Source: Eledone cirrhosa (Eukaryota). From it: a stretch of 64,000 nucleotides of DNA. A program made the translations under genes and the position numbers. This document shows, piece after piece, positions 41,320-41,459 of the stretch. The notes beneath the pieces are model-generated. The model worked only from the letters and a program-made list of their open reading frames with translations. It was not told the origin of the DNA and ran no database searches. The DNA lies in NCBI GenBank assembly GCA_964016885.1, contig CAXHJY010000336.1, positions 33,076-97,075 on the forward strand. The letters are read 5' to 3'. The first letter of the stretch is position 1; the number at the start of each line of letters is the position of its first letter.

Positions 41320-41459
41320 TCTAATATATTCTAATTCGTTGCACCACTGATTCTCCGTTTCTTATGTGATATTATACTCTGCTCTGTAAGAGCATCGAGT
41401 ACTCAAACGGCCTACCGCTTACGGACGCTTTAAGCATCCCACACCAATTACACACGCAC

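Follow-up and report, generated by a model that had tools for sequence, protein, structure and literature searches.

The window analysed here, a stretch of 64,000 nucleotides from Eledone cirrhosa (contig CAXHJY010000336.1, positions 33,076 to 97,075), contains repeat families with hammerhead motifs. They are located at (TA)n, and many copies are accompanied by an inverted partner that is truncated at its 5' end. The copy at position 41393 belongs to family H and has the following parts, where the short and long ends are the two places at which copies stop.

41204..41449, plus strand: family H copy, the 5'-truncated 3' end of a Penelope-like element from the Hydra clade, made up of the pLTR and its tail; the 40 best genomic matches are 92-100% identical, and a read-through copy enters an RT ORF
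41228..41320, plus strand: type I hammerhead motif with a long stem II, read from the sequence; core at 41234-41240 and 41303-41306, cut predicted after 41314, stem III altered in this copy
41369..41375, plus strand: TA-like short-end site, where inverted partners join (TA)n; query positions 172-177 are the end point for 13 of the 20 secondary matches in inverted orientation
41376..41402, plus strand: predicted hairpin 1, with a 5' arm (41376-41385), a loop and a 3' arm with a 2-nt bulge (41395-41396); matches the model built from other organisms at E 0.006
41403..41449, plus strand: spacer extending to the long end; hairpin 2 begins 6 nt beyond it in copies that read through
41450..41537, no strand: (CA)n/(TA)n target microsatellite

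Stem II is unusually long (~60 and 115 nt) in the hammerheads at window positions 41194-41320 and in the family F unit.

A sequence-only reading of the window had proposed that a ten-nucleotide box, YATYGAGTRC, shared by otherwise unrelated families, acts as a cis signal that sets the 3' end of the element at a fixed distance downstream. The box is real: all 12 listed sites were confirmed, with the site at 52827 shifted by one base. The consensus matched exactly at five of these sites and only GAG is invariant, and the distance of about 45-60 nt to the next microsatellite held for eight (44-60 nt) and failed for the others (64, 66, 89, and 172 nt). The 172-nt case (44170) is a copy of another family whose tail was replaced directly 3' of the box.

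We evaluated positional enrichment in an independent sample of 780 kb (78 random 10-kb stretches at fixed positions elsewhere in the genome, 740 flanks), where the box was again enriched before tracts. Of 27 exact matches in sense orientation close to a tract, 20 had the tract 50-59 nt downstream, and none of 15 antisense matches fell at 30-89 nt. When each of 885 clusters was represented by a single flank, the core motif occurred 22 times at 40-95 nt and eight times in the other 125 nt (p = 2e-6), and the box with one mismatch occurred 23 times at 40-95 nt and 18 times elsewhere (p = 7e-4); the 40-95 nt window was picked after inspection of the data, so these p values are optimistic. For the comparison among families we used 163 clusters of at least two members each, a set that also took in search-derived loci; the motif lay 35-100 nt from a tract in 13 of them, one of which is doubtful. 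None of the 78 pairs of families could be aligned, whether within the spacer or over the 65 nt upstream. The idea of a conserved cis signal tied to element ends is supported, the motif having been kept while its flanks diverged past alignment.

The families themselves are probably less unrelated than they look. Judged by their ORFs and motifs, they are best read as 3'-terminal pLTR fragments of paralogous Hydra-clade Penelope-like elements, with A, B, F, G, and H linked to RT/GIY-YIG ORFs. In the consulted text of Craig et al. (2021; PMC8557442), the Hydra clade is defined by an RWK-like motif, a change of DKG to DKT, and the motifs CxCX5C, CxxC, and CxH; our clade assignment rests on such motifs. 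Family F corresponds to the pLTR of a tandem unit of 6908 bp that holds a single ORF of 824-830 aa, encoding an RT plus, at the C terminus, a GIY-YIG endonuclease (EN), and its protein has a CxCX5C linker, CxxC, and CxH with no CCHH. The GIY-YIG Pfam match was weak and confined to a relative, and Pfam missed five of seven ORF pieces; 118 homologues of the ORF were found. RWR and DKT motifs were found in F, H, and A, and RWK in B. RT fragments of 22 hairpin-bearing elements were 30-80% identical (median 48%), and viral contigs held no relatives.

The insertions have the structure of EN+ Penelope-like elements, namely partial tandems (the 6908-bp unit), inverted 5'-truncated copies, and a tail at one end (30 of 33 inverted pairs combine a long and a short end). 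Long ends adjoined a microsatellite in 33 of 34 copies of family A and 25 of 25 copies of family H. A hammerhead motif was read from the sequence in the pLTR of families F, G, B, E, and H, and the hammerhead core was not seen in family A. Our genomic search found no clear read-through copy into a Hydra ORF for families E and D. The family F ORF is young: over the 241 aa used as query, at least 150 copies have protein sequences that are 99-100% identical; the corresponding autonomous element (L154-L156, G000:C1:420370001-420400000) has a 6.9-kb unit of which about 4 kb is microsatellite-rich and non-coding. We rejected an assignment to the non-LTR retrozymes, which are tandem non-coding monomers with a hammerhead each: the linked families lead into ORFs, and tandems of 200-300 nt are only occasional. 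Two short pLTR-only tandems with both hairpins (L283-L284; G000:C2:356030060-356030707), of 257 and 299 nt, are candidate non-autonomous monomers.

The box does not stand alone. It is predicted to be not a linear element but the 3' strand of a bulged RNA hairpin of the pattern RCTC, short stem, T-N-GAGY-RC; in family H it forms 41393-41402. An RCTC arm upstream of the box pairs with GAGY, followed by a 3'-side bulge of usually 2 nt (TT, TC, or TA) and a short upper stem. Between the arms lie 11-78 nt in intact window copies, and arm-to-arm distances overall range from about 6 to 95 nt. The other predicted examples of hairpin 1 in the window are as follows.

105..130, plus strand: family A; model match; hairpin 2 and an ORF found in related loci
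627-662 (plus), 20004-20039 (minus), 50005-50040 (minus), 50330-50365 (plus), and 53034-53069 (minus): further family A copies
965..991, plus strand: family at 982; 89 nt from the tract; model match
34077..34097, plus strand: family D; this copy has lost the first upper pair; weak model match (E 7)
41714..41740, plus strand: family G; 3' of a hammerhead core at 41609; hairpin 2 and an ORF found
43867..43887, plus strand: family D; model match
44161..44198, minus strand: a further family; right after the box a family B copy, beginning with its 5' end, takes the place of the tail, and locus L050 has the family's own short end and continuation
47381..47429, plus strand: family C; G-C outer pair, 39 nt inside
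51953..52040, plus strand: family F, the pLTR of the young autonomous element; 78 nt inside
52819..52840, minus strand: family E; 1-nt bulge variant
61808..61842, minus strand: G-C outer pair; model match

In the decayed family F copy at 54983 the 5' arm was unrecognisable. The family B copy at 43960-44160 (minus strand) has a 5' boundary common, within 4 nt, to seven matches in six other loci, which suggests a defined RNA 5' end. The window also holds an abundant SINE-like repeat with a tRNA-like box (20368-20487, 25524-25712, 36429-36595, 38000-38138, 40045-40226, and 41849-42004), unrelated to the hairpins, and tandem repeats with 84-bp and 88-bp units (23223-23972 and 53684-54373).

Single hairpins fold weakly. 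The hairpin at 41393 was predicted to span 41376-41401 with a z score of -2.7, and the three other folded hairpins were no better than shuffles, so that one of four fell below -2. Among hairpins from metagenome contigs, 48 of 49 retain the first upper pair (33 C-G, 15 U-A), with the caveat that pairing served as a tie-breaker in the choice of arms in this set; at the outer pair, 43 have G-C and four have U-A. Hairpin 1 of most families in the Eledone genome has A-U instead. Because MAFFT misplaced the 5' arms of 44 hairpins, the model was built from 10 of equal length, and for these the covariation was 0.317 as against 0.091 in shuffled alignments, a value reached by none of 500 shuffles. G-U and A-C combinations were equally frequent in the outer pair and the first three upper pairs (two each), so the RNA sense strand, the antisense strand, and single-stranded DNA are indistinguishable by this count. 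Searched against the window, the model from other organisms gave 18 matches, and the 10 best (E up to 0.19) were all box sites, five of them family A copies absent from the original list. It recovered six of the 12 listed sites at E up to 10, passing over the ones with long inserts or variant bulges. TAT or ATA stood directly before the arm in 35 of 48 cases, compared with 33 of 96 control windows.

Two other sources of the box were considered and rejected: hammerhead stem I, since the box lies 36-71 nt 3' of the cut site, and a duplex promoter element, which leaves the covariation unexplained. In an Rfam scan of the window the best 150 of 586 matches were all below the gathering threshold and were mostly microsatellite-driven miRNA models.

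The sequence-only reading had suggested looking for the motif downstream of hammerheads in autonomous Penelope-like elements, and there it was found, not once but twice. In full elements the order is hammerhead, hairpin 1, spacer, hairpin 2, and ATG. Of 399 candidates from metagenome contigs, 78 loci were retained, with 60 hammerhead matches in 50 loci, 37 of them distinct and with 200 nt downstream. In these 37 regions a strict detector identified 34 hairpins, as against 1.65 in shuffles and six on the opposite strand. After three duplicate or spurious rows were left out, 34 regions remained, of which 20 reach an ORF start. Nineteen of these 20 hammerhead-to-ATG junctions have twin hairpins (18 with two, one with two and an overlapping spurious call) and one (L226) has a single hairpin. 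Among the 14 loci that stop before the ORF start, seven have no hairpin, five have one, and two have two. Hairpin 2 lies 19-46 nt before the ATG. In L237 and L241 both hairpins have the same U-A outer pair, hinting at concerted change, and in the Eledone genome hairpin 1 is mostly A-U and hairpin 2 G-C.

The truncated copies in the window end before hairpin 2, and its presence right after the long end was predicted for five families; it was found for three, doubtful for one, and missed for one. Read-through copies with the predicted hairpin 2 numbered two for family H, 325 for A (100 listed), and 245 for G (100 listed), with none in any of the reversed controls. A Hydra-type ORF start followed 3' of hairpin 2 in one of two H loci, five of nine A loci, all 10 G loci examined, and a B locus, and hairpin 2 itself was also seen in F, B, and L loci. 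For family E hairpin 2 was not found, its eight pattern matches all crossing microsatellites, and family D gave four pattern matches with one doubtful read-through; the search patterns allowed at most 34 nt inside, so that any long-loop hairpins would have escaped them. A family with a CCHH-type endonuclease ORF offers a contrast, having a tail of about 60 nt without the hairpin motif. In a non-Hydra Penelope family with a CCHH-type endonuclease (L164:6727-6900, L065, L055) the same word of 6-7 bases follows the short and the long end, possibly an analogous paired signal.

Copies end just upstream of the hairpins, 6-9 nt before hairpin 1 (the short end) or hairpin 2 (the long end). Measured from arms 1 and 2 in turn, the TA run most often started 8 and 6 nt upstream in family A, 9 and 8 nt in G, 7 and 8 nt in F, and 6 and 6-11 nt in B (two long ends only); in family H it started 6 nt before arm 2, the short-end offset being left out as the reference begins in a TA tract. 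Families A, B, F, and G had no end outside these two classes. Hairpins 1 and 2 are spaced 78-138 nt arm to arm across families. Direct copies end at the long end and their inverted partners at the short end: among 33 inverted pairs in the random sample and the window, 30 were long plus short, two long plus long, one other plus short, and none short plus short. Of the large family F insertions, four were mixed, one was short plus short (autonomous, inverted), one was ambiguous, and two had one end in view. In metagenome loci, alignments ended 0-3 nt upstream of an arm in six of 13 cases, and the other seven reflect diverged relatives or breaks elsewhere. A few copies are tail-first, beginning at the short-end site directly after (TA)n (L271, L275, L276, L293, and L294); among long-ended copies this arrangement was seen in one of 73.

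Each hairpin marks an end that precedes its own 5' arm by 6-9 nt; it does not set one at a fixed distance downstream, where the interval is 44-89 nt across families. The 45-60 nt reflect the spacer to a second hairpin that the truncated copies lack. In a second autonomous family (L072, L173-L192) a canonical box directly follows the ORF, some 1.3 kb away from the true end, which has a variant hairpin of its own; in all 16 copies shown, of 20, the box after the ORF had no end 45-60 nt downstream.

We therefore put forward, with a probability of roughly 0.7, that Hydra-clade elements carry a hairpin twice between hammerhead and start codon, and that each hairpin likely binds the RT and places the cDNA start on U/A-rich bases 6-9 nt upstream of itself. 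What is observed is the motif with its covariation, its presence as a pair, and the copy ends just upstream of each hairpin. Whether the pair forms a two-seat docking site for a dimeric telomerase-related RT-endonuclease, with a fixed start 6-9 nt upstream, hairpins left uncopied, and two programmed ends per insertion, is to us an even bet. Under the main reading each hairpin would dock an RT, the dimer would nick both strands of a (TA)n target, and (TA)n primers would start on the U/A-rich bases directly 5' of a hairpin. One primer would start before hairpin 2 and give the long end, where the tail is formed by copying both the spacer and hairpin 1. The other would start before hairpin 1 and give the short end; the two cDNAs would then join head to head. 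As the start-positioning hairpin would itself be uncopied, the sequence-only reading would have met hairpin 1 alone, separated from the long end by the length of the spacer. The Penelope tail would likely be explained in this way. Counting against this reading are the weak folds, the wobble-pair counts that do not tell the strands apart, the end pairs of the same type, the tail-first copies, the junction with a single hairpin, the outcome of the hairpin 2 search in families E and D, and the internal box with no end downstream.

The main rival is that the motif works in DNA: the GIY-YIG endonuclease would read it in element DNA or cDNA, as inverted half-sites or as a single-stranded hairpin, and cut the adjoining TA-like site, making the ends resolution cuts and not RT starts. 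We regard this as unlikely, while noting that the consulted text of Craig et al. (2021; PMC8557442) ascribes the tail to EN-mediated resolution, that of Frangieh et al. (2024; PMC11167929) has the Penelope tail required for EN recognition of DNA, and a cut would be the simpler account of the tail-first copies at the short-end site (L271, L275, and L276; three of four family D search rows). Such copies are, however, rare, the wide range of inter-arm distances and the covariation of the upper stem fit a folded single strand better than a duplex site, and the tail maps to RT starts in vitro (PMC11167929). Somewhat less probable still is a role limited to RNP loading or expression, in which the hairpins attract the protein in cis or regulate how the nearby ORF is transcribed or translated, and ends fall next to them only because TA-like sequence there anneals to the (TA)n primer. 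The closeness of hairpin 2 to the ATG, the enrichment of TA-like sequence before the arms, and the promoter motifs described in pLTRs (in the consulted text of PMC3846280) would suit it, yet many other TA-like spots in the AT-rich pLTRs go unused in families A, B, F, and G, the offset is constant, and long-plus-short pairing needs two distinct positioned events.

The original proposal of a linear box that measures off the 3' end accounts for the enrichment at 50-59 nt and for the eight well-spaced window sites, and is nevertheless improbable given a distance of 41-88 nt across families as against 6-9 nt to hairpin 2, and an internal box that sets no end. Neutral common descent with no present function could draw on the linked families all belonging to one clade; we give it hardly any weight, as the flanks cannot be aligned, the RTs are far diverged, and the paired positions change in compensation, a covariation that already largely refutes it. 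Alignment along the whole length, named beforehand as the sign of simple common descent, was not found, and deep common descent with selective retention does apply.

Small RNA stem-loops that are recognised by an RT and fix the start of copying are familiar from the 3' ends of stringent LINEs (L2, CR1, RTE) and from hepadnavirus epsilon. In LINEs each element has one stem-loop, which is itself within the copied part, whereas the hairpin described here would lie 3' of the start and stay uncopied, and two of them would give two ends.

The Hydra-clade C-terminal EN+ Penelope-like elements, as presented in the consulted text of Craig et al. (2021; PMC8557442), share with ours the RT-GIY-YIG ORF motifs, the pLTR hammerhead, (TA)n targets, the inverted 5'-truncated partner, and the tail; they differ in tail length (30-40 nt, as against ~60-137 nt here) and unit length (under 3 kb, as against 3.5-6.9 kb). 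That text contains no description of a hairpin, its duplication, or a link to ends. Inspected by eye, the six Hydra consensus sequences of its File S7 have a clear hairpin in two, Hydra-2_Amil (coral) and Hydra-2_Ajap (sea cucumber), a near one in one (copepod), and an ambiguous one in one, and two stop just after the hammerhead. The Poseidon_Ac element is the closest experimental parallel: according to the consulted text of Frangieh et al. (2024; PMC11167929), the RT starts in vitro at two internal sites bounding the tail, targets are AT-rich, both target strands are extended, a dimer is predicted, and RNA 3' of the start sites is needed. It belongs to another clade, its starts lie in an "AC-rich stem loop" inside the ORF, and no conserved repeated recognition hairpin is defined there. 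Non-LTR retrozymes (bioRxiv 10.64898/2026.07.22.740005, text consulted) are likewise short hammerhead-bearing repeats from Penelope pLTRs, but the window copies are dispersed, inverted, truncated ends of coding elements and not tandem non-coding monomers. The word "hairpin" is absent from the searched text of Arkhipova 2013, Cervera 2014, and the retrozyme preprint (10.64898/2026.07.22.740005). A term search of the supplement text of Frangieh et al. (2024; PMC11167929) gave no match; its figures S1-S2, on start-site structure, were outside this search and may bear on novelty. Our literature search, which left aside subscription papers, Repbase notes, and supplementary figures, found no description of the motif, and the hairpin is thus apparently an unpublished, real cis element of a known clade.

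Penelope-like elements are the closest retroelement relatives of telomerase, and how they choose a template and why the tail is optional are open questions; the sole in vitro study located two start sites and no conserved signal. A covarying motif of 20-30 nt, at a constant offset to both ends in elements whose RTs are 30-80% identical, points to exact mutations to test, and the hairpin is a simple marker for annotating the boundaries of Hydra elements. If two-seat docking is true, it would explain the Penelope tail and provide a portable signal by which internal initiation could be directed to an RNA of choice.
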